Shown here: positions 2,246 to 14,632 of the stretch, piece after piece
Layout of the letters: each line of letters begins with the position of its first letter
Numbering within the stretch: position 1 is the stretch's first letter
Assembly: GCA_038279365.1 (NCBI GenBank)
Contig: JAYODI010000099.1
Span: 1-18,909 of the forward strand
Source of the DNA: Candidatus Latescibacterota bacterium
GTDB taxonomy: Bacteria; Latescibacterota; UBA2968
Length of the DNA stretch: 18,909 nucleotides
Direction: 5' to 3'
Program-made: the position numbers and the translations under genes
The notes under the pieces: model-generated
Seen by the model: the letters and a program-made list of their open reading frames with translations, nothing else
What the model was told of the DNA's origin: nothing
Database searches by the model: none

Positions 2246-3184
2246 TTATTTGGGGTGATAATATGCCAGCAATTCGGTGAGGCCTTGTGTGAGTGTGTAG
2301 TCGGGGTGAAAACCCAATAGCGATTGTGTGTGCGAGATATCGGCCGATGAGTAACGAATGTCACCAGCGCGCTCGGGTTCAAATGTGGGCGCGATGTGTG
2401 TGCCTTGGATATTTTGAATGGTGTTGAGGAGGTCTAAGAGGGTAACGCTTTCACCTGTGGCAACATTAAATGCTTCGCCACCTTTTAGGTTGGGTGCATG
2501 CATGGCCAATAGATTGGCTTTGGCCACGTCTTTGACAAAGACAAAGTCGCGAGATTGTTTGCCATCGCCAAAAATGGTGATGGGATGGTTTTTTAAGACG
2601 CGATCTACGAATATTGAAATGACGCCCGAGTAAGATGATTTGGGATCTTGCCGTGGGCCATAAACGTTAAAGTAACGCAGTGCCACGACGGGTAAGCTGT
2701 AGAGTGTGGAGAAGATGTGTGCGTAATATTCTTTCCCGATTTTTGCAAGCGCATAAGGCGATTCTGGCTGGGGGCGCATCGTTTCTTTTTTGGGTAAGAC
2801 TGGATCGTTTCCATAAATGGATGCCGAGCTGGCTAAGACCACCCGTTTGACGCCTGCATTTTGGGATGCTTCTAATACATTGAGGGTGCCGGTTAAGTTG
2901 ATTTCGTGGTTGTCTCTGGGAAGCCTGACAGACTCAATGACCGATACCAGCGCGGCTTCATGAAAGACATAATCGACACCTTGCATGGCAGATGAAAGTG
3001 CATCACTGTCGCGTACATCGGCTTCGATGAAGGTGACGCGATTGAATAGGTGGGCAATGTTTTGGGTGTAGCCAGAAGATAGATTGTCGTAGATGCGTAT
3101 TTCATGATCACCCTCTTCCAACAAGGCTTCGGCAATGTGTGAACCGATAAAACCTGCGCCACCTGTAATTAAATAAACAGCCAT
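2246..3184 (-). CDS. NAD-dependent epimerase/dehydratase (extended SDR, UDP-glucose/UDP-GlcNAc 4-epimerase-like)
   Basis: TGGAGFIGSH Rossmann motif, ASSASIYG, YxxxK (YALAK), LRYFNVYGPRQDP, GDGKQSRDFVFV; GAGG RBS upstream. Confidence 0.95.
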   Translation of the reverse strand: MAVYLITGGAGFIGSHIAEALLEEGDHEIRIYDNLSSGYTQNIAHLFNRVTFIEADVRDSDALSSAMQGVDYVFHEAALVSVIESVRLPRDNHEINLTGTLNVLEASQNAGVKRVVLASSASIYGNDPVLPKKETMRPQPESPYALAKIGKEYYAHIFSTLYSLPVVALRYFNVYGPRQDPKSSYSGVISIFVDRVLKNHPITIFGDGKQSRDFVFVKDVAKANLLAMHAPNLKGGEAFNVATGESVTLLDLLNTIQNIQGTHIAPTFEPERAGDIRYSSADISHTQSLLGFHPDYTLTQGLTELLAYYHPK

Positions 3185-3337
3185 TTGACCTCACTTTTGT
3201 ATGTGTCGTTTTTGGTAAGGCTTCAAGATATAGATAAATGAATAAAAATCAATTCCTACGTTATACAGGGATTGATTTGTTATAGAAAATAAAATAGGGA
3301 TAAGTGGAAATTGTTGGTACAGTTCCTATGTTCTGTA

Positions 3338-3366
3338 TTGACAATAGAGGATGAAATGTTTACTGT
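3338..3366 (+). promoter_or_regulatory. Putative sigma70 promoter for leader ORF 1
   Basis: TTGACA (3338-3343), 17-nt spacer, TACTGT (3361-3366), about 40 nt before ATG 3409. Confidence 0.6.
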
Positions 3367-3408
3367 TTGGACACGTGTTTTAAATAGAAATTTAATTTGG
3401 TATGGATC

Positions 3409-3678
3409 ATGCGCACGCAAAAAAAACTTATCACACTTGCTGTTATTTTGGTTGTTTCGGCATTTTTCGGTGTCTATGGTCATGCGGTTTTAGATGATCA
3501 TGGTGCTGGAGAAGTGTGTGTTGTTTGTGTCTTTATGCAAACCGGTGGTGCACCCATTGGAGTTGTGTTTTCTCTCACATTGTTTCTCATTTCCTTCGCC
3601 TTGCGCGTTTCTGCTTTTTCCTTCCTTGCTGTTGTCCTTTCTATTGCCACACCTGGTCGTTCACCGCCTATTTCTTAA
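3409..3678 (+). CDS. Small membrane protein / leader peptide 1 with CxxC and C-terminal GRSPP (DUF2946-like)
   Basis: 89 aa: basic N-terminus, hydrophobic segment, GHAVLDDH then CVVC, second hydrophobic stretch, ends PGRSPPIS. Matches the DUF2946 pattern (N-terminal TM/signal, CxxC, C-terminal RxPP). Confidence 0.75.
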   Translation: MRTQKKLITLAVILVVSAFFGVYGHAVLDDHGAGEVCVVCVFMQTGGAPIGVVFSLTLFLISFALRVSAFSFLAVVLSIATPGRSPPIS

Positions 3679-3737
3679 TGTCACGTAAATGATGGTATTT
3701 GATACGATTTGCGTATGATGTTTGTGCTGTACGCAAC

Positions 3738-3767
3738 TTGACAATATGTACGTGTGTCGAGTAGACT
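3738..3767 (+). promoter_or_regulatory. Putative sigma70 promoter for leader ORF 2 and the metal-uptake operon
   Basis: TTGACA (3738-3743), 18-nt spacer, TAGACT (3762-3767), about 40 nt before ATG 3806. Confidence 0.55.
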
Positions 3768-3805
3768 TTAAGAAACTAAGGCTAAACGTCATGTTACCCG
3801 CTTCT

Positions 3806-4087
3806 ATGAACAAACAATCACTGGCCGTTAAGCTGGTGATGGTTCTGATGTTGTGCGCATTTTTTGCCGTTTCTTGGCATGGGTTTGCGGCAGAACATTT
3901 AGACCATGTCCATTTAACAGAACAATGCCAGATCTGTCATTGGTTGCAAACAGCCCTTTGGATAACTGTTTCTGCTACTGCTTTGTACGCGTGGTGTGTG
4001 TACGAACGCATACATATTTTTGCCTCTCTGTTGTTGCCTCTGTTTTCCCTCCAAAGTCCTTCTGGTCGGTCTCCTCCACGTTATTAA
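3806..4087 (+). CDS. Small membrane protein / leader peptide 2 with His cluster, CxxC and C-terminal GRSPP (DUF2946-like)
   Basis: 93 aa from ATG 3806 (alternative ATG 3791): hydrophobic N-terminus, WHGFAAEHLDHVH, CQICH, hydrophobic stretch, ends SGRSPPRY. Same architecture as 3409-3678. Confidence 0.78.
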   Translation: MNKQSLAVKLVMVLMLCAFFAVSWHGFAAEHLDHVHLTEQCQICHWLQTALWITVSATALYAWCVYERIHIFASLLLPLFSLQSPSGRSPPRY

Positions 4088-4176
4088 ATCTTTCTCTTAT
4101 TTTTTTGATAGGCCAACACACATAGTGTGTGTTGGGTGCTTGTGTACACCTGTACTCGGGAGAAGGTTTAATGATG
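4079..4176 (+). promoter_or_regulatory. Predicted mRNA structure sequestering the RBS and start codons of the outer-membrane gene
   Basis: 4079-4092 CGTTATTAAATCTT pairs with 4163-4176 AAGGTTTAATGATG (11 WC + 3 G:U). It encloses a perfect 10-bp hairpin CCAACACACA-TAG-TGTGTGTTGG (4113-4135). Confidence 0.55.
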
Positions 4177-5361
4177 AAGATCTTTCTATTTGTATTGCTC
4201 AGTGGGAGCATGTCTTCCATTTGGGCACAGTCTGTGGTGCCAACCCAGCAAGCATTGTCTGCGTGGTTGCAGACGCAAGGAAGTACAACTGCAACAGGTA
4301 CTTCAACGGCATTTAATCCAGCAATTAGTGTGAATGGTTTGTTTTTGGGGTTCTACACATCGTCGCCCTTTTTGCGCCCGCCTGCTTTTGGTGATGCACA
4401 TGATCACGAAGAGGAACTTGAGGAAGAAGGTCACGAGGGGGATCATGAAGAGGACGATGGGCATGCACATGCACATGGGTTGCCTGAAAGTTCGGGTCTT
4501 CAGGTACAAGAAGTGGAAGTGCGATTTAGCGCTGTTGTGGATGCCTATTTCAAAGCCGATATGACGTTGGCCATTCCGGGAACTGAGAATATTGAACTTG
4601 AAGAAGGTGTGCTTGAAACGATTTTTTTGCCCAGTGTGACGCTAAAAGCGGGTAAATTTTATGGCGCGTTAGGAAAACACAATAACCTGCATACCCATGC
4701 GTTTCCATTTGTGGATCCACCCATTGCCAACGAAAGGCTTTTGGGTGGAGAAGGGTTGAATGAGGTGGGGGTAGGGGCCAGTGTGTTGTTGCCTACAACG
4801 TGGTATTCGGAGTTTCAAGGGCAAGTGTTGAATGGTGATCACGCATTGTTTAACAGTACACGAGATCGCGATTTTGCGTATTTGGGGCGGTGGACAAATC
4901 TGTGGAATGTAAACGATAATGCAACGTTAGAGTTGGGTGGTTCTTATGTGTTTGGCAAAAATGAATTCACCAAATTTTCACAGGTTTGGGGTGGCGATGT
5001 GACGTTTAAGTGGCGACCTGCTCGACAGGTACGAGATCGCGGTTTGACCTTGCAGGCTGAGTATTTGCAGGCACGAGTGGATGATGGGGTTGATATTGAA
5101 AAAGTAGGGGGCATGTATGCACTGGTACAATACCAATTTGCCCGACGCTGGTGGGCACAGGCACGCTACGATGTGTTTGGTATCCCTAAGTTGGCGCCAA
5201 CACGTGAATATCGTGTAAGTGGCTTGTTGACGCTGGCACCCAGTGAATTTTCGGCCATTCGGTTGCAATACAATTTGAATCGTGAAGCGGGGCAAAGCGT
5301 GCATCAATTGGCTTTGCAATTGAATTTTACAATGGGTGCGCATCCTGCTCATGCCTATTGA
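4171..5361 (+). CDS. His/acid-rich outer-membrane beta-barrel protein, probable metal (Zn/Mn/Ni/Co) uptake channel
   Basis: GGAGAAGG RBS, signal peptide ending IWA-Q, tract HDHEEELEEEGHEGDHEEDDGHAHAH, QEVEVRFSAVVDAYF, KHNNLHTH, alternating beta-strand pattern, C-terminal GAHPAHAY; directly upstream of ZnuA/ZnuB-like genes. Confidence 0.75.
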   Translation: MMKIFLFVLLSGSMSSIWAQSVVPTQQALSAWLQTQGSTTATGTSTAFNPAISVNGLFLGFYTSSPFLRPPAFGDAHDHEEELEEEGHEGDHEEDDGHAHAHGLPESSGLQVQEVEVRFSAVVDAYFKADMTLAIPGTENIELEEGVLETIFLPSVTLKAGKFYGALGKHNNLHTHAFPFVDPPIANERLLGGEGLNEVGVGASVLLPTTWYSEFQGQVLNGDHALFNSTRDRDFAYLGRWTNLWNVNDNATLELGGSYVFGKNEFTKFSQVWGGDVTFKWRPARQVRDRGLTLQAEYLQARVDDGVDIEKVGGMYALVQYQFARRWWAQARYDVFGIPKLAPTREYRVSGLLTLAPSEFSAIRLQYNLNREAGQSVHQLALQLNFTMGAHPAHAY

Positions 5362-5370
5362 TGATTCGGT

Positions 5371-5405
5371 CATCAAAGTGGGGAGATTGTTTCCCAACTT
5401 TGATG
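5371..5405 (+). other. Intergenic stem-loop without U-tract
   Basis: CATCAAAGT (5371-5379) pairs with ACTTTGATG (5397-5405), plus an inner GGGAGA/TTTCCC stem. Possibly an mRNA stability or processing element. Confidence 0.5.
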
Positions 5406-5474
5406 GGACATTTGAATTTGTGAAACATAATGATGCCATTGTACTATGACTTTGTGATAATCAGGAGTGTGACG

Positions 5475-6386
5475 ATGAATCGCATGATTTTTGGGATTGT
5501 CTCATTTGTAATGATTTTAACTATGAATAGTGATGCAAAAATTCGGGTGGTGACCACCACGACCGATTTGGGAGCGATTGTGAAAGCTGTGGGTGGTGAT
5601 GAGGTGGATGTTGAGGTGATTGCAAAAGGCTATCAAGACCCGCACTATGTGCAGGCCAAGCCGAGTTATATGCGACTCATGAATCGGGCAGATTTGTTGG
5701 TGTATGTGGGCATGGAACTTGAGGTGGGGTGGTTGCCTCTTTTGATTCAGGGTGCGCGCAACCCCAATATTGTGCCTGGTGCCATGGGGCATTTGGATGC
5801 ATCGATTGGTATTCGACGCTTGGATGTGCCCACGGGGCAAGTGGATCGGTCGATGGGTGATGTGCATCCTGATGGCAACCCACACTATTGGCTTGATCCG
5901 CGAAATGGGATTGTGATTGCAAAAACTGTTGCTGAAAAATTAAGTGCATTGGAGCCCGACAAAGCCAATGTGTTTATGGCCAATTATAAAACTTTTCAGG
6001 CTGACTTAGAAGCGCGGATAGATACCTGGAAAAAGCAGTTGGCGCATTTTGAAGGACAAAAAATGGTCAGCTATCACAAGTTGTGGGTCTATTTATCTGA
6101 TTGGTTGCAATTTGAGGTGGTGGATCAAGTAGAGAATAAAGCGGGTATTCCGCCGAGCCCGCGCCATTTGGCTGATTTGGTGGCACGCATGAAGTCTGAG
6201 CAGATCCGTTTGATTGTGTGTTCGAATTTTGTCGATACAAAGATTGCTCAGCGTGTGGCCGAGCGGTCACAGGCCAAGTTGGTTGTTTTACCTGCATCTG
6301 TTGGTGCTGTTTCGGGTGTGGAGACCTATGCCGATTTGTTTGATTATATTGTTGCGCAGTTGGGTTCGGTGAATGAGGAGATGTGA
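5475..6386 (+). CDS. Metal ABC transporter substrate-binding protein (ZnuA/TroA family)
   Basis: AGGAG RBS, signal peptide, VVTTTTDL, QDPHY, ADLLVYVGMELE, HPDGNPHYWLDP, SYHK, GIPPSPRHL. Confidence 0.93.
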   Translation: MNRMIFGIVSFVMILTMNSDAKIRVVTTTTDLGAIVKAVGGDEVDVEVIAKGYQDPHYVQAKPSYMRLMNRADLLVYVGMELEVGWLPLLIQGARNPNIVPGAMGHLDASIGIRRLDVPTGQVDRSMGDVHPDGNPHYWLDPRNGIVIAKTVAEKLSALEPDKANVFMANYKTFQADLEARIDTWKKQLAHFEGQKMVSYHKLWVYLSDWLQFEVVDQVENKAGIPPSPRHLADLVARMKSEQIRLIVCSNFVDTKIAQRVAERSQAKLVVLPASVGAVSGVETYADLFDYIVAQLGSVNEEM

Positions 6387-7201
6387 TGAGTGATTTTTTA
6401 TTTTTGATGGCGGCCCCTTTTGTGGCATGTTTGATTTTGGTAGGTATTCATGCCTATTTGGGGTTGCATGTGCTGGCTCGTGGTGTGATTTTTGTCGATT
6501 TGTCTTTGGCTCAAATTGCGGCATTTGGCAGTACGCTTGCTTTTTTGTTTGGATATGATTTGCACAGTGGTGCAGCGTATGTGATTTCGTTGGTTGCTAC
6601 ATTTGTTGGCGCAGGCGTGTTTGCTCTTACGCGCTTGCGCCATGCGCGTATTCCGCAGGAGGCGATTATTGGCATTGTATATGCCGTGTCGGCGGCAGCG
6701 GGTATTTTGGCCATTGATCGGGCCCCACATGGTGCCGAGCATGTGAAGCAGATGCTGGTGGGGTCTATTTTGTGGGTGACTTGGGTAGATGTGGCCAAAA
6801 CAGCGGGGATTTATGCGCTTGTGGGTTTGTTTCACTGGGTGTTTCGCAATCGTTTTTTGGCCTTGTCGTTTGATGAAAACCGTGCGCATCGTGAAGGGTG
6901 GTCGGTACGTGGGTGGGATTTTTTATTTTATGCATCATTTGGTTTTGTGATTACCAGTTCTGTTGAAATTGCTGGGGTTTTACTGGTGTTTTCTTTTTTG
7001 GTGGTGCCTGCTGTATGTGCGGTATTGTTTTCAGAAGCAATCAGTACGCGTTTGTTTTTGGGGTGGGTCATTGGGTTTGTTGTGAGTGCGTTGGGGTGTT
7101 CGGCATCTTATGTTTTTGATTTGCCAACTGGGGCAACTGTGGTGTGTATGTTTGGCACTGTCTTGTTGGTATTGGCACTGTTTCGCAAAGTTTGGGTGTG
7201 A
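6383..7201 (+). CDS. Metal ABC transporter permease (ZnuB/ABC-3 family)
   Basis: Overlaps the upstream stop. Multi-TM protein with LGLHVLARGVIFVDLSLAQ, EAIIGIVY, LVGSIL, AGVLLVFSFLVVPA, DLPTGATVV. Confidence 0.93.
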   Translation: MMSDFLFLMAAPFVACLILVGIHAYLGLHVLARGVIFVDLSLAQIAAFGSTLAFLFGYDLHSGAAYVISLVATFVGAGVFALTRLRHARIPQEAIIGIVYAVSAAAGILAIDRAPHGAEHVKQMLVGSILWVTWVDVAKTAGIYALVGLFHWVFRNRFLALSFDENRAHREGWSVRGWDFLFYASFGFVITSSVEIAGVLLVFSFLVVPAVCAVLFSEAISTRLFLGWVIGFVVSALGCSASYVFDLPTGATVVCMFGTVLLVLALFRKVWV

Positions 7202-7289
7202 ATTTGTACTTGTTCAAGTAGGGTTGCTCGGTATATTAAATATGTGAAACGTTGCCACATATTTTGAACATTTTAAGGGGATGATATTT

Positions 7290-8015
7290 ATGCAACACGC
7301 ACATGGTGAAGGCAAAGAAGCATTGGATATTTTGGAACACGGGGCACCTGTTGATGGACAACCTCAAAGCACCGATCGACGGTTGTACATGCAATTTCAA
7401 GCGTTTACAGGGGTTACCGAAACCGATGAGGTGATTGCGGTATTGGAAGGCAGCGGTTTGGATGCAGCACTTTATGTGGATGCAAATGATCCTTATGGCA
7501 TTGGTGTGGTGTTTATGACCGAGTCTGCAGATGTTTTGGTGACCGATGTACGGGCACTGTTGAACAGTGAGCCATTTGATGTGTTGGATCATCGGCCTGA
7601 ATTTACGATGCTGGGGCGTACGTATGCAACGGGTTATGAACCCGACTTGGAACATGCATTAATTGAACGTCCTAAGAGCAATGTGCTCAACCCTGATTGG
7701 CCGTGGGGCATTTGGTATCCATTGCGTCGCAATGGTGCTTTTGCTGGGTTAGATCACAAAGAGCAACGCCAGATTTTGATGGAACATGCGTCTATTGGTC
7801 GCGCATATGGGCGAGCGGGTTTTGCACACGATGTGCGGTTGGCGTGTTATGGTTTGGATGCCAATGACAATGATTTTGTGATTGGTCTTATTGGTGCAGA
7901 ATTGTATCCGCTGTCGCGGGTTGTGCAAGATATGAGAAAGACACAACAAACGGCATTGTATGTCGATTCATTGGGGCCGTTTTTTGTGGGCAAGAAGATT
8001 TGGCAAAAGAAATAA
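7290..8015 (+). CDS. Chlorite dismutase / coproheme decarboxylase (Cld/ChdC/HemQ) family heme protein
   Basis: C-terminal domain WYPLRR...ILMEHASIGRAY...CYGLDANDNDFVIGL...LSRVVQDMRKT...GPFFVG. ATG 7290 is best spaced from AAGGGG (alternative 7281). Confidence 0.82.
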   Translation: MQHAHGEGKEALDILEHGAPVDGQPQSTDRRLYMQFQAFTGVTETDEVIAVLEGSGLDAALYVDANDPYGIGVVFMTESADVLVTDVRALLNSEPFDVLDHRPEFTMLGRTYATGYEPDLEHALIERPKSNVLNPDWPWGIWYPLRRNGAFAGLDHKEQRQILMEHASIGRAYGRAGFAHDVRLACYGLDANDNDFVIGLIGAELYPLSRVVQDMRKTQQTALYVDSLGPFFVGKKIWQKK

Positions 8016-8040
8016 TGTGACAATCGATAGGAGCATGATG

Positions 8041-8073
8041 ATGGAGTGGGGTTTTGACCTGCTCCATTTTATT
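8041..8073 (+). terminator. Putative intrinsic terminator
   Basis: ATGGAGTGGG / CCTGCTCCAT stem (with G:U pairs) followed by TTTATTT, 25 nt after the stop codon. Confidence 0.6.
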
Positions 8074-8126
8074 TGATAAATACCCCGTTTGGTTTGCAAC
8101 TAATTGTAGACTATGTTACACCTGAT

Positions 8127-8154
8127 GGCTTGTGACTTGTGACTTGCGACTGAA
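8127..8154. repeat. Short heptamer tandem repeat (GACTTGY family)
   Basis: GGCTTGT GACTTGT GACTTGC GACTGAA; the same family occurs at 12845 and 17464-17548. Confidence 0.7.
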
Positions 8155-8219
8155 TTTAACTTGACGCTTGCTGTATTTTCATGTTATCAATAATCCATAC
8201 TCTTTGACAAGGATTGATT

Positions 8220-9470
8220 ATGATTCAGCGTCTTGAAACACTTTATTATCAGTGCTTGCGCCATGTTGAGCAAGATTTGGCAAACAGTCAAGTGTTGGTT
8301 GGGCCCAATGGCAGTGGGAAAACGACTTTTTTGGATGCGATTGCCTTTTTAAGCGACTTGGTTCGCGGCGGGCTTGATGAAGCGGTTTATCAACGGGTGA
8401 ACGATGTACACGATTTGTTTTGGCTTCAAAAAGCAGATCGGTTTGAGCTTGCTGTGGAATTGGCAGTCCCCGAAGCCGAAGGCCGTTTGTTTGATGCACC
8501 AGAATATGTGCGTTGTCGTTATGAGGTTGCAATAGGCTTGATAGACGATACGGGCGAAGTGGGTATTTTGGGTGAAAAGGTTTTGTTGCTGGCCGATGCT
8601 GTGCGCGAAGAGGTGAGTGCGCAGGAGTCTTTGTTTCCGGTGGATGGACCCGCACCTAAGTCATTGTCTACACCGCGTGTGCGTGGAACAAAGACGATTG
8701 TGAATAAAGTGCCGGGTGGCAATGATAAATTTTATGATGAAACAGGTTCGGGGTGGGATCCTTCTTTTAAGTTGGGTGCGCGTCGATCTGCGTTGGCCAA
8801 TTTGCCAGAAGACGAAACGCGGTTTCCGGTTGCTACGTGGCTGAAGCGTTTGTTGATAGATGATGTGTTGCGTTTGAATTTGGATGCCGAAAAATTAAAG
8901 CGACCTTGTCCACCTGGTTATGCACGGTCATTGATGGCAAATGGTGCCAATGTACCGTGGGTCATTGCTACCCTTAAAGACAAAGCTCCTGCGGCACATT
9001 TGGCTTGGGTGAACCATTTGCGCCGTGTGTTGCCGAGCTTGGCAACGGTTGATACGGTTGTGAGGTCTGAAGATCGACACTGTTATTTGGTGATGCACGA
9101 CCAAAATGGATTGAAAGTGCCTTCTTGGATGTTATCTGATGGCACGTTGCGTTTGTTTGCGCTTACTTTGTTGTCTTATTTGCCTGATTTTTGTGGCATT
9201 TGTTTGATTGAAGAACCCGAAACGGGCTTGCACCCTGGGGCAGTTGAGACGGTTTTTAGATCGCTGAGTGCGGTGCCTCATGCACAGGTGTTGATGACCA
9301 CGCATTCGCCTGTGATTTTGAATGTGGCACAGCCCGATCAGTTGTTGTGTTTTGCGCCGTCTGAGACTGGCGCTACGAAAATTGTTTTGGGTGAGTCGCA
9401 TGAGAAGTTGAATGCGTGGCGCAGTCGCACAGATTTGAGTGCATTGTTTGGGGGTGGGGTTTTGAGGTAA
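8220..9470 (+). CDS. AAA_21/ABC-type ATPase resembling MADS defence ATPase MAD3
   Basis: Walker A GPNGSGKTT, signature-like LSDGTLR, Walker B/D-loop IEEPETGLHP, H-loop TTHSP. Start ATG 8220 (TTG 8214 alternative). MAD3 similarity is from recall only. Confidence 0.8.
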   Translation: MIQRLETLYYQCLRHVEQDLANSQVLVGPNGSGKTTFLDAIAFLSDLVRGGLDEAVYQRVNDVHDLFWLQKADRFELAVELAVPEAEGRLFDAPEYVRCRYEVAIGLIDDTGEVGILGEKVLLLADAVREEVSAQESLFPVDGPAPKSLSTPRVRGTKTIVNKVPGGNDKFYDETGSGWDPSFKLGARRSALANLPEDETRFPVATWLKRLLIDDVLRLNLDAEKLKRPCPPGYARSLMANGANVPWVIATLKDKAPAAHLAWVNHLRRVLPSLATVDTVVRSEDRHCYLVMHDQNGLKVPSWMLSDGTLRLFALTLLSYLPDFCGICLIEEPETGLHPGAVETVFRSLSAVPHAQVLMTTHSPVILNVAQPDQLLCFAPSETGATKIVLGESHEKLNAWRSRTDLSALFGGGVLR

Positions 9471-12975: not shown

Positions 12976-13809
12976 ATGATTGTTGATACACATATTCATA
13001 TTTATGACCCCACGCGCCCACAGGGGGTGCCATTTCCTGAAAAAGGCGATGTGTTGTATCGGCGTGTGTTACCCGAAGATTATAAAGCATTGGCGGTGCC
13101 AAAAGGGGTAACAGGCACGATTATCGTAGAGGCCAGTGTGTGGCCTGAAGACAATCAGTGGGTGTTGGATGTGATTGAAGATGATCCATTTGTGTTGGGT
13201 TTGGTGGGCAATTTGGATCCGCGGTCAGATGATTTTGGCAATTGGTTAGACAAACTTGCACCTTCTCCGTTGTTTTTGGGCATTCGTCCACGGACCTATC
13301 CGTGGGAGCGCGAAAACTTGGATGTGATGACAAAGGCATTTGAAAAGTTGGTGGCTTATGATTTGGAGTTGGATTCGGGCATCAGTGAAGGCACGATTGA
13401 AATTGCAAAGCGTTTGCCCGAGTTGCGCATTGTGATCAATCATTGTGGCAATATTCCAGCAGATGGCAATCCTGTAGACCCTGAAGGTTTGAAGCTGATG
13501 CAACGGGCGGCAGCTTGCCCGAATATTTTTTGTAAAGTATCGGGCCTGATGGATTTGCGTTGTAAGGTGAGACCCGCCCCTACAGATGTGGCATTTTATA
13601 CACCCGTGTTGGATGCGTTGTGGGATATGTTTGGTGAAGACCGTGTGATTTATGGCAGTGATTGGCCCGTGCTGGATTATAGTGAGCGCACCTATGCCGA
13701 CGCACAGGATATGGTGCATGCTTATTTTGCACAAAAAGGTGATGATGTTTTGGAAAAATACTTTTGGAAGAATGCCAAAAAGGCATATAAGTGGACAGAT
13801 CGCAATTAA
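12976..13809 (+). CDS. Amidohydrolase_2 family protein (LigI / L-fuconolactonase-like)
   Basis: DTHIH, IIVEAS, GIRP, IVINHCG, CKVSG, FGEDRVIYGSDWPV, NAKKAY; GAGGAGG RBS. Confidence 0.92.
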   Translation: MIVDTHIHIYDPTRPQGVPFPEKGDVLYRRVLPEDYKALAVPKGVTGTIIVEASVWPEDNQWVLDVIEDDPFVLGLVGNLDPRSDDFGNWLDKLAPSPLFLGIRPRTYPWERENLDVMTKAFEKLVAYDLELDSGISEGTIEIAKRLPELRIVINHCGNIPADGNPVDPEGLKLMQRAAACPNIFCKVSGLMDLRCKVRPAPTDVAFYTPVLDALWDMFGEDRVIYGSDWPVLDYSERTYADAQDMVHAYFAQKGDDVLEKYFWKNAKKAYKWTDRN

Positions 13810-13828
13810 ACATATGGGAATGGACGAC

Positions 13829-14632
13829 ATGGATATTGTGCCAACGGGTGGGGCATTGGGCGCCGAGATTGTGGGTGTGGATATACGGCATGAATTAGAT
13901 GCTGAAACGGTTGCTTGCATTCGACAGGCGTTGTTGGATTATTGTGTGATTTATTTTCGCAACCAAACACTGAGTGATGTGGATCAAATTCGGTTTACCA
14001 ATTATTTTGGTAAGGCAGTTGAACACGTGCGCAAGCAACGTGAGCGTGAGCACAAAGAGATCTTTTTGATTTCAAATGTGAAAGAAAACGGTGAAGAGAT
14101 TGGGGCATTGGGCAGTCATGAGGTGTCTTTCCATTCGGATTTGTCTTATCTCAAACATCCCGGTACCATTTCGACGCTTTATGCAGTTGAGTTGCCATCG
14201 GTTGGTGGGGGCACGCAATGGTGTAATTGTTATGCGGCTTATGCGGCTTTGAACGCGGATATTAAAAAACGGCTGAAAGGTTTGCGTGCGGTTCACAGAC
14301 ATTATGTGGAAGAACAAAACCCACCTGAATGGATTGACCATCCTGTGGTGCGCACCCACCCAGAAACAGGGCGCAAGTCTTTGTATGTGGGACCCCATTT
14401 AACCAAATATATTGTGGGGATGGACCGCGATGACAGTGATGCATTGCTTGAGATGATTTATGACCATGTGTCTAAGCCCGAATTTTCTTGGACACACAAA
14501 TGGCAATTGGGTGATTTGGTGATGTGGGACAATCGGCCAACGATGCATCGGCGTGAACCCTTTCCGGATACAGAGCGCAGGTTGATGAAGCGCACGCAGG
14601 TGTTTAATGGAGATGATGTACCGTTTGAATAG
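13829..14632 (+). CDS. TauD/TfdA family Fe(II)/2-oxoglutarate dioxygenase
   Basis: LGAEIVGVD, IYFRNQ, HxD (FHSD), GGGTQW, HPVVRTHPETGRKSLY, WDNRPTMHRR, RLMKR. Start uncertain (13814, 13820 or 13829); the longer ORF-track start overlaps the amidohydrolase. Confidence 0.93.
   Translation: MDIVPTGGALGAEIVGVDIRHELDAETVACIRQALLDYCVIYFRNQTLSDVDQIRFTNYFGKAVEHVRKQREREHKEIFLISNVKENGEEIGALGSHEVSFHSDLSYLKHPGTISTLYAVELPSVGGGTQWCNCYAAYAALNADIKKRLKGLRAVHRHYVEEQNPPEWIDHPVVRTHPETGRKSLYVGPHLTKYIVGMDRDDSDALLEMIYDHVSKPEFSWTHKWQLGDLVMWDNRPTMHRREPFPDTERRLMKRTQVFNGDDVPFE

Follow-up and report, generated by a model that had tools for sequence, protein, structure and literature searches.

A tandem pair of CxxC-RSPP open reading frames upstream of porin, ZnuA, and ZnuB genes in a Latescibacterota bacterium: candidate metal-sensing leader peptides

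The window analyzed here, an 18,909-nucleotide (nt) stretch of contig JAYODI010000099.1 (GenBank assembly GCA_038279365.1) from a Candidatus Latescibacterota bacterium, carries at positions 3409 to 7201 five codirectional genes on the + strand. These are two short open reading frames (ORFs), ORF1 and ORF2, followed by the genes for a predicted outer membrane porin, a ZnuA-type metal-binding protein, and a ZnuB-type permease. Comparison with related loci makes it probable, at a moderate level of confidence, that ORF1 and ORF2 encode paralogous exported leader peptides of the RAPP-like arrest class, which would sense metal in cis and gate the translation of the porin, ZnuA, and ZnuB genes.

Organization of the locus

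Successive genes of the cluster are separated by 112, 83, and 68 nt, and the last two overlap by 4 nt. The coding features are as follows.

3409–3678, + strand: leader ORF1, 89 amino acids (aa); signal or anchor segment 5–28, H24, H31, CVVC 37–40, hydrophobic stretch 46–83, GRSPP 83–87, then IS and stop
3658–3669, + strand: RSPP codons of ORF1 (CGT TCA CCG CCT), Pro codons at 3664–3669; putative stall, with CCG as the P-site codon and CCT as the A-site codon, assigned by analogy to the toeprint of CruR (PMC12992588)
3791–4087, + strand: leader ORF2, 98 aa; signal or anchor segment 9–33, H30, H36, H39, H41, CQICH 46–50, GRSPP 92–96, then RY and stop
4067–4078, + strand: RSPP codons of ORF2 (CGG TCT CCT CCA); putative stall, by the same analogy, with CCT (4073–4075) in the P site and CCA (4076–4078) in the A site
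4171–5361, + strand: predicted 16-strand outer membrane porin with a disordered His/Asp/Glu-rich insert at residues ~76–102 (AlphaFold2 model)
5430–6386, + strand: ZnuA-type periplasmic metal-binding protein of cluster A-I (PF01297, E value of 3.4e-54)
6383–7201, + strand: ATP-binding cassette (ABC)-3 permease of the ZnuB type (PF00950, E value of 2.1e-34)

The translations of ORF1 and ORF2 bear out the common architecture proposed in the initial annotation: a hydrophobic N terminus, His residues, a CxxC motif, a spacer, and GRSPP two residues before the stop. The hydrophobic segments, delineated by a hydropathy window alone, are preceded by Lys/Arg-containing N termini. RSPP occupies residues 84–87 in ORF1 and 93–96 in ORF2, and the distance from CxxC to RSPP is the same in both, 43 residues. 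The Pro codons of ORF2 lie at 4073–4078, where they had been placed. An alternative in-frame ATG of ORF2 at 3806 is the less likely start because AAGG (3779–3782) stands 8 nt before the ATG at 3791. The initial statement that the two ORFs have little overall identity has to be corrected: BLASTP aligns them at 31% identity over 94 columns with an E value of 4e-10, so that they are detectable paralogs and not mere look-alikes.

A six-frame scan of the whole genome (6.03 Mb) found 8 ORFs of 60 to 200 aa that terminate in R[SAG]PP plus 0 to 8 residues; judging from the ORF ends, only ORF1 and ORF2 add to this a CxxC motif and a hydrophobic N terminus. By this comparison, their shared architecture exceeds what would be expected by chance.

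The porin-ZnuA-ZnuB module

The genes downstream of the two leaders agree with their initial description as a His-rich outer membrane protein (4171–5361) and ZnuA/ZnuB-like proteins (PF01297 and PF00950). The porin has no match in Pfam. Its AlphaFold2 model (predicted local distance difference test score of 79.9, predicted template modeling score of 0.75) contains 16 strands and matches 230 structures in the Protein Data Bank (PDB) at E values of ≤1e-3 in Foldseek, headed by Omp38, PorB, OprO/OprP, and OmpF. The best matches are general and OprP-type porins, with E values down to 2.7e-10 and template modeling scores up to 0.59, and the predicted structure is that of the 16-strand β-barrel of general porins. 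Its neighbors in the ESM-Atlas include a cluster automatically named “zinc-regulated ... outer membrane receptor.”

The nearest solved relative of the ZnuA-type protein is Synechocystis ZnuA (2ov1/1pq4; E value of 1.4e-18), and the His residues of its DPH, NPH, and xYH motifs are aligned; these three His residues are presumably the metal ligands of the Synechocystis protein. The cluster A-I binding protein (PF01297) and the ABC-3 permease (PF00950) make the module similar to the ZnuABC, TroABCD, and AztABCD importers. In contrast to these, the window has a dedicated 16-strand porin with a His-rich insert ahead of the binding protein and no ABC ATPase gene after ZnuB, so that binding protein, permease, and ATPase do not occur together; control is apparently exerted by leader peptides instead of, or besides, a Zur-type repressor. 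At 15 of the 17 porin loci described below, a scan of 34 flanking proteins, out of 57 listed, likewise revealed no ABC ATPase.

A complete second system, with a ZnuA-like binding protein, an ABC ATPase, and two ABC-3 permeases, is encoded on contig C46 of the same genome; as a conjecture, its ATPase might also serve the porin-ZnuA-ZnuB module. At one related locus (L072), a gene for an ArsP_2-type protein with 10 transmembrane segments lies between those for ZnuA and ZnuB.

The leader peptide family

Neither ORF1 nor ORF2 has a usable match in Pfam or NCBIfam (the best being DUF6274 with an E value of 0.13 and LpqS with an E value of 0.0038), and word-indexed protein searches returned only 3, 4, and 16 relatives, none of them named or carrying a Pfam domain. 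A HMMER search with an 8-sequence profile against 1.84 billion cluster representatives recovered 34 family proteins at E values of ≤1e-3, nearly all of them 80 to 110 aa long. In their alignment (ORF2 numbering), C46, C49, R93, and P96 are invariant, while H30 and P95 are conserved at ≥90%.

Pooling of the database matches with genomic copies gave 110 sequences (103 distinct), and both motifs are present in 97 of these 103. The CxxC-RxPP gap is 40 to 44 residues in 91 of the 97 (42 residues in 47 and 43 residues in 33), and RxPP is followed by 2 or 3 residues before the stop in 91 of 102 members. The core motif is RSPP in 47 members, RAPP in 42, RGPP in 8, KSPP in 2, and RPPP, HAPP, and RTPP in 1 each. 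The spacer sequence is free to vary across the family and is hydrophilic in the loci labeled Nitrospinaceae. Orthologs of ORF1 have 88% identity at the related locus L082 and 67% at L065, and relatives of ORF2 have 90, 80, and 72% identity, with 59% at L082 and 40% at L065. Counting the window's own genome, the family is present in 36 of the 41 genomes of the order. On these comparisons, ORF1 and ORF2 belong to a short family that is unannotated in the databases searched and lies outside Pfam.

Genomic contexts of the leaders

The 40 family loci taken from 35 genomes of the order usually consist of the family ORF, an unannotated protein of either ~155 to 210 aa or 300 to 500 aa, and a protein of 730 to 860 aa. 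Among the neighboring proteins scanned (52 of 213 listed, all from loci L026 to L045), this large protein is a TonB-dependent receptor with an N-terminal CarboxypepD_reg domain, encoded within two genes of the family ORF, in 12 of 13 nonporin loci. In the sister genus (L027 to L041), a conserved protein of ~155 to 165 aa, unannotated and starting with MFF(R/A), comes after the family ORF and precedes the TonB receptor with CarboxypepD_reg; in the sister family, a ~416-aa protein starting with MFSMLKMK takes the place of the shorter one. The MFF(R/A)- and MFSMLKMK-type proteins that were scanned had no Pfam match. At locus L036 (genome G018), a family copy at 13645–13920 heads a cluster of an ABC ATPase, an FtsX/MacB-type permease, and a DUF3299 protein. 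Together with the TonB and porin-ZnuAB loci, this means that leaders of this type are attached to at least three kinds of transport modules.

Within the order, the porin-ZnuA-ZnuB layout was seen only in a genome of the same genus, with a tandem pair of leaders, and in one genome of another genus, with a single copy. When 185,579 species genomes were scanned for the pattern of an alignment of 3 porin sequences, 17 loci were obtained; their labels, given here as deposited, are Latescibacterota, Nitrospinaceae, Binatia, Deltaproteobacteria, Calditrichota, Ignavibacteriaceae, Cytophagia, and Gemmatimonadetes. All 17 have the porin-ZnuA-ZnuB order, and immediately before it stand one or two small ORFs with an RxPP-like motif at the end, as would be expected from the initial prediction of CxxC..RxPP ORFs at such loci. 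The family profile matches these upstream ORFs (uORFs) at E values of ≤1e-4 in 13 loci; the other four, with E values of 6e-4, 6e-4, 0.2, and 0.4, were accepted by position and motif. The Cys motif is CxxC at 13 loci, CxC at 3, and a single Cys at 1, and the core variants at porin loci include NKSPP, HAPP, and RPPP. The genes neighboring the other porin loci are mixed and encode ZIP, NikR, Fur-family, MerC, and ArsP_2 proteins.

Tandem leader pairs occur at 5 of the 17 porin loci, in the window, on three metagenome contigs, and at one TonB-type locus (L062) of a relative. In the clade of the window, the ORF1-type and ORF2-type sequences have ~30% identity with each other and each type is conserved across three genomes, while identity within the pair is 67 to 75% in the genomes labeled Nitrospinaceae and 69% in L079. 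These pairwise identities within and between tandem leaders indicate separate duplications, with tandem leaders arising at least three times: in the clade of the window, in the genomes labeled Nitrospinaceae, and in L077.

Predicted RNA pairing between leader ends and downstream start sites

At both junctions of the window, ORF1 to ORF2 (junction 1) and ORF2 to porin (junction 2), the end of the leader is predicted to pair with the start site of the next gene.

3655–3683, + strand: 5' arm of the junction-1 helix, comprising the GRSPPIS-stop codons and 5 nt beyond (RNAalifold, single-sequence fold, and stall-zone pairing)
3763–3790, + strand: 3' arm of the junction-1 helix, which includes the Shine-Dalgarno AAGG (3779–3782) and the bases up to the ATG of ORF2 at 3791 (same folds)
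4079–4096, + strand: 5' arm of the junction-2 helix, comprising the last two codons of ORF2, its stop codon, and 9 nt beyond (fold and RNAalifold)
4113–4135, + strand: 10-bp hairpin inside the junction-2 helix, its stem kept with a different sequence in L065 and L082
4159–4176, + strand: 3' arm of the junction-2 helix, comprising the Shine-Dalgarno GGAGAAGG (4159–4166) and the ATGATG start of the porin gene (fold and RNAalifold)

The RNAalifold consensus of the window, L065, and L082 contains 40 pairs at junction 1, 5 of them changed on both sides, and 33 pairs at junction 2, where 3 are changed on both sides, e.g., from A-U to G-C with replacement of Tyr by Arg or Cys near the end of ORF2. 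In the fold of 4040–4200, the segment 4079–4093, made up of the final two codons of ORF2, its stop codon, and the next six bases, pairs with the tail of the Shine-Dalgarno sequence and with ATGATG (z of -2.9; 2 of 200 shuffles fold equally well).

For comparison across loci, pairing was measured as the number of the 18 start-site nt predicted to pair with the 27-nt zone around the RxPP codons. This number is 11.1 at junction 1 of the window and is reached by 1 of 100 zone shuffles. In the porin-type set, in which three uORF2 starts were set by hand, at least 6 start-site nt are paired in 14 of the 18 uORF-to-porin junctions, and in 10 of the 18 the observed pairing is reached by no more than 10 of 100 mononucleotide zone shuffles. 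The TonB-type set comprised 47 junctions, 17 of which were dropped before the count, leaving the 30 with a confident downstream start; at least 6 nt are paired in 20 of these, and the pairing values add up to 189, whereas shuffles average 53 and never exceed 73. The ORF of the sister genus ends in ...GUC UCC UGA AU, which complements the downstream AUUCAGGAGAC exactly; because of their close kinship, these loci are not independent observations. A scan of 3000–8300 against Rfam at E values of ≤1 gave only a chance match to mir-2 (E value of 0.62).

The predicted folds would place an arrested ribosome where it could alter the RNA structure that controls the next gene, and the pairing of leader ends with the following start sites supports control in cis. 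Such control of a metal operon, as put forward in the initial annotation, finds further support in the conserved upstream position of the leaders (17 of 17 porin loci) and in the TonB receptor operons of the relatives.

In a ~95%-identical strain (run X5), ORF1 has many changes (3415–3640), and there are none in the junction-1 arms (3655–3683 and 3763–3790) or in junction 2 (4064–4182). DNA nearly identical to 3300–5400 is present in estuary, salt marsh, and marine metagenome runs from several studies.

Relation to DUF2946 and characterized arrest peptides

The initial annotation compared the two ORFs to DUF2946 proteins (Pfam PF11162, gathering threshold of 23.7 bits), and this comparison stands in part. 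A direct match of either ORF was not obtained (see below). PF11162 is nevertheless the Pfam family most often matched by the family members (8 of 34), and the best copy, from a relative, comes near the threshold with 22.5 bits over profile positions 47–117. No protein above the threshold was found in the 151 genomes sampled from the phylum. DUF2946 is also the sole Pfam-named set among 30 ESM-Atlas neighbors of ORF2 (score of 0.92; 54% of the members of that cluster). In our reading, the family of ORF1 and ORF2 stands at the margin of DUF2946, either as a short branch that has diverged or, possibly, as a look-alike produced by convergence.

CruR and DUF2946 are characterized in PMC9426467 by an export signal and CxxC, followed at a distance of 45 ± 1–2 residues by an RAPP motif that lies three residues before the end; an export signal or N-in anchor is present in >95% of DUF2946 proteins, and the cruR-type gene stands first in copper-related operons, often ahead of a gene for a TonB-dependent transporter. 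ORF1 and ORF2 have a predicted N-terminal export signal or anchor and the CxxC (CVVC 37–40 and CQIC 46–49), and the ORF1-ORF2-porin-ZnuA-ZnuB order places them at the beginning of a metal transport operon. Their spacing of 43 residues is within two of 45, while the family mode of 42 falls just outside. The C-terminal motif is a variant, RSPP two residues from the end in place of RAPP three residues from the end.

Similarly to ORF1 and ORF2, CruR of Bordetella pertussis (Bp2923) combines CxxC, a fixed spacer, and RxPP two or three residues from its end, and it precedes a TonB-dependent receptor, as do relatives of ORF1 and ORF2. The logic by which metal relieves the arrest and shuts uptake off is the one proposed here as well. 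However, CruR is longer (145 versus 89 to 98 aa), has a spacer of 45 residues versus 42 or 43 in the ORF1/ORF2 family, and carries RAPP rather than RSPP, yet RAPP is found in 42 of the 102 family members. CruR acts through a 162-nt intergenic region and Rho-dependent termination, whereas ORF1 and ORF2 are followed by short gaps that are predicted to pair with the next ribosome-binding site; in further contrast to CruR, they are in tandem and their target is a porin with ZnuA and ZnuB.

CutF of Rhodobacter capsulatus, a DUF2946 protein that regulates cutO, has the output wiring inferred for ORF1 and ORF2, with the stall unmasking the next ribosome-binding site. Its motifs are CxxxC and PPP, with dependence on elongation factor P (EF-P), versus CxxC and RSPP here. 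CutF switches a detoxifying multicopper oxidase on with copper, whereas the target of ORF1 and ORF2 is an importer, and the opposite sign would be expected. An RxPP core near the C terminus of a small secreted or membrane protein encoded upstream of the regulated gene is also shared with the RAPP-like arrest peptides ApdA and ApdP, SecM (RAGP), and the Streptomyces lividans RAPP/RGPP peptides upstream of metal genes.

PMC12992588 describes an enrichment of RAPP/RGPP uORFs upstream of genes for TonB receptors and YcnI, PCu(A)C, and PepSY proteins. As described there, the survey covered RAPP and RGPP only and dropped uORFs that precede genes annotated as unknown; it would therefore miss RSPP leaders in front of an unannotated porin. 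The same paper reports that RAPP-type cores arrest elongation, that CruR becomes arrested in vitro when Pro3 occupies the P site and Pro4 the A site, and that the Ala-to-Ser variant RSPP is “partially permissive” in ApdA/ApdP and underrepresented in proteomes (PMC12992588). In the ORFs of ≥200 aa from the window's genome, used as a crude stand-in for the proteome, the observed/expected ratios are 0.44 for RSPP, 0.14 for RAPP, 0.10 for RGPP, and 0 for RDPP, with 1.02, 0.95, and 0.93 for the controls KSPP, ASPP, and RSPA, respectively.

Promoter-like sites and flanking genes

Two elements resembling promoters lie in the upstream region and in the spacer between the two leaders.

3339–3367, + strand: promoter-like site upstream of ORF1, with TTGACA (3339–3344), a 17-nt spacer, and TACTGT (3362–3367), recognized by conservation
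3723–3774, + strand: nearly invariant spacer element, an imperfect inverted repeat plus TTGACA-18-TAGACT (3738–3767), with a 10/12 promoter match, recognized in the alignment

The pattern TTGACA-17-TAnnGT of the first site is kept in the window, L082/L084, and L065, with TTGACA invariant. This site was not listed by the consensus scan (the second hexamer of the window matches at 3 of 6 positions), and the scan itself did not exceed shuffled sequences, with 8 promoter sites found versus 8.9 expected; it also marked terminator-like sites within the ORFs. The spacer element is almost fully conserved in three relatives, more so than the flanking coding sequence, and its inverted repeat is perfect in L082 (CTTGACA-N11-TGTCAAG); it might act as an internal promoter or as an operator or form a hairpin in the RNA. 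Inspection of 3185–3408 by eye for a Zur/Fur-type operator turned up only GTTATA repeats with the wrong spacing.

Immediately after ZnuB lies another conserved gene.

7281–8015: chlorite dismutase/HemQ-like gene (PF06778, E value of 5.7e-11)

This gene is kept, at 72 to 86% identity, downstream of a family ORF in the genome of the same genus and at 10 TonB-type loci of the sister genus. Its conservation across porin- and TonB-type loci suggests that one transporter module replaced another while the genomic position was conserved. Farther downstream, a terminator-like hairpin (8040–8068) separates the metal operon from a gene for a 418-aa AAA_21/AAA_15 ATPase (8214–9470; PF13304, E value of 8.4e-29), whose domain type is linked in Pfam to AbiEii-like systems.

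Proposed mechanism

In the proposed sequence of events, the N-terminal signal or anchor would bring the nascent chain to the translocon, so that the His/CxxC site would be ~43 to 47 residues from the peptidyltransferase center once the ribosome reaches R-S-P-P. There, the ribosome would pause while the first Pro codon occupies the P site and the second one the A site. The stalled ribosome would cover the last codons of the leader, its stop codon, and a few bases beyond, which would otherwise be paired with the next Shine-Dalgarno sequence and start codon. When held at 3664–3669, it would cover nearly the whole 5' arm of junction 1; when held at 4073–4078, it would reach ~4088–4090 and cover the part of the 5' arm that pairs with the porin start codons. 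During the stall, the next cistron could initiate, with ORF1 opening ORF2, ORF2 opening the porin gene, and ZnuA and ZnuB following on the same message.

Binding of metal at the His/CxxC site would alter the duration of the stall. The CruR sign of the response is favored because the output is an import module: without metal, a long stall would keep the operon on, while bound metal would release the stall, let the helix re-form, and turn the operon off. The design would thus combine a CruR-type sensor, in which metal shortens the stall, with a CutF/SecM-type output, in which the stall exposes the ribosome-binding site that follows. With two leaders in series, the two stall probabilities would be multiplied, and the switch would become tighter and steeper. 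That the different His/Cys loops of the two leaders sense different metals, as the initial annotation suggested, is speculative. The best guess for the most likely ligand is Zn(II), because the three His residues of Synechocystis ZnuA align; an Asp near the position of the fourth ligand of ZnuA leaves Mn or Fe open.

Points against the proposed mechanism and alternative explanations

Several observations weigh against gating of the operon by metal-sensing arrest peptides. In the comparison with DUF2946, neither ORF1 nor ORF2 matches PF11162 at an E value of ≤1, the 8 matching family members do so weakly (best E value of 0.013, none above the threshold), and none of the 5 genomes holding porin loci matched at E values of ≤0.01. 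The family was itself gathered by a profile that encodes the CxxC-RxPP spacing. As to the arrest, RSPP is only partially permissive in both contexts described in PMC12992588 and is depleted only ~2-fold in the genome versus 7- to 10-fold for RAPP and RGPP.

On the RNA side, the junction-1 region as a whole has a z of -0.36, with 67 of 200 shuffles folding equally well, and at junction 2 of the window the observed pairing is attained by 28 of 100 shuffles of the stall zone, because part of the 5' arm falls outside the 27-nt zone. The pair changes on both sides rest on three sequences. Little pairing is predicted in 4 of the 18 porin junctions (L067, L068, L072, and L081) and 10 of the 30 TonB-type ones, and between uORF1 and uORF2 it is seen in 2 of 6 tandem pairs (11.1 in the window and 10.5 in L065, with 0.0 to 2.0 in the other four). 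In addition, the shuffles keep mononucleotide content only and the CCU-CCN Pro codons (CCUCC) are inherently anti-Shine-Dalgarno, so that part of the pairing signal is generic to the motif.

With regard to transcription, the element at 3738–3767 could give ORF2 its own transcript and thereby uncouple it from ORF1. Contigs identical to the window were found in RNA libraries (3393–3569 and 5092–5242 in one run, 3519–3655 in another), but their depth is low, no junction is bridged, and carryover of DNA is possible, so that they establish neither transcription nor cotranscription.

The same sensor could also be coupled to a different output, as in CruR: the stalled ribosome would block the loading of Rho, its release would lead to termination before the porin gene, and the helices would be incidental or auxiliary. 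CruR, the closest characterized relative, works in this way (PMC9426467), the gaps in the sister family are ~250 to 320 nt, and 8 of 10 junctions analyzed there have <6 paired start-site nt. However, the gaps of the window are only 112 and 83 nt, consist mostly of helix, and are not visibly C rich or G poor, as judged without a Rho site predictor, and complementarity to the Shine-Dalgarno and start region recurs across phyla. An output through Rho is accordingly considered unlikely for this locus.

Alternatively, the products of ORF1 and ORF2 could be small, stable proteins of the membrane or periplasm that bind metal and function in trans, e.g., as a chaperone or an accessory subunit of the porin-ZnuAB importer, with RxPP having a structural or sorting role or causing a mere pause, and with ordinary translational coupling. 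The export signal and His/Cys site of both ORFs, the strict colocation with transporter genes, and the second long hydrophobic stretch of ORF1 (46–83), which fits a stable two-helix membrane protein and is a further point against a leader peptide, are all compatible with such a role. One of the two ORF products (P0002) also weakly resembles the NCBIfam model of the mycobacterial copper homeostasis lipoprotein LpqS (E value of 0.0038; 17.5 bits versus a cutoff of 35), which provides a lead only. However, beyond the signal, few positions are conserved (His, CxxC, and RxPP, at a fixed distance), while the remainder varies even in hydrophobicity; RxPP stays 2 or 3 residues from the stop (91 of 102); the transporters encoded behind the family ORFs are of unrelated types (TonB receptors, porin-ZnuAB, and ABC ATPase/FtsX/DUF3299); and RxPP tetrapeptides are otherwise avoided in the window's genome. 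A function in trans therefore appears improbable.

That the two are chance ORFs in a long 5' leader without a coding function, a notion to which only the lack of names and Pfam domains in the protein collection lends anything, has a negligible probability and is contradicted by their conservation: paralogy at an E value of 4e-10, orthologs at 40 to 90% identity with the frame kept, and occurrence of the family in 36 of 41 genomes of the order and upstream of 17 of 17 porin loci.

Implications

To our knowledge, metal sensing by nascent exported peptides (CruR in 2022, CutF in 2023 to 2025) has been studied only for copper and in two proteobacteria. The principle as such is already known from CruR, CutF, and the RAPP/RGPP survey, and the locus described here would represent a variant of it, one that is well supported by comparison. 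The arrangement itself appears to be new, as the initial annotation had supposed: literature searches found no such leaders before a ZnuA/ABC-3 system or a porin and no tandem leaders, with the proviso that supplements could list cases. The main text of PMC12992588 contains none of the terms “zinc,” “ABC transporter,” “porin,” and “tandem”; its source data could list such cases.

A broader reading is offered tentatively and is possible rather than probable: the leaders might form a widespread family of metal-sensing arrest peptides outside DUF2946, in which the stall-adjacent codons themselves are the anti-Shine-Dalgarno, and the serial relay of this lineage might work as an AND-type, ultrasensitive, or two-metal switch for an ATPase-less module. 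On this reading, the independent evolution of tandem leaders at least three times would point to selection for a two-stage design.

If ORF1 and ORF2 are indeed metal-sensing leader peptides, the principle extends to a short family that goes undetected by Pfam and mostly carries RSPP, a motif that the published survey of RAPP and RGPP did not cover; to an importer of the zinc type that has a porin of its own; and to lineages labeled with at least seven nonproteobacterial phyla or classes. The predicted RNA wiring is unusually clean and testable, the last codons and stop codon of the sister-genus leaders being the exact complement of the next Shine-Dalgarno sequence. As a naturally recurring arrangement, the paired leaders could reveal how arrest peptides in series affect a dose response, and the family profile could be used to annotate many “hypothetical” ORFs of 80 to 110 aa and to flag metal-regulated uptake operons in uncultured bacteria.

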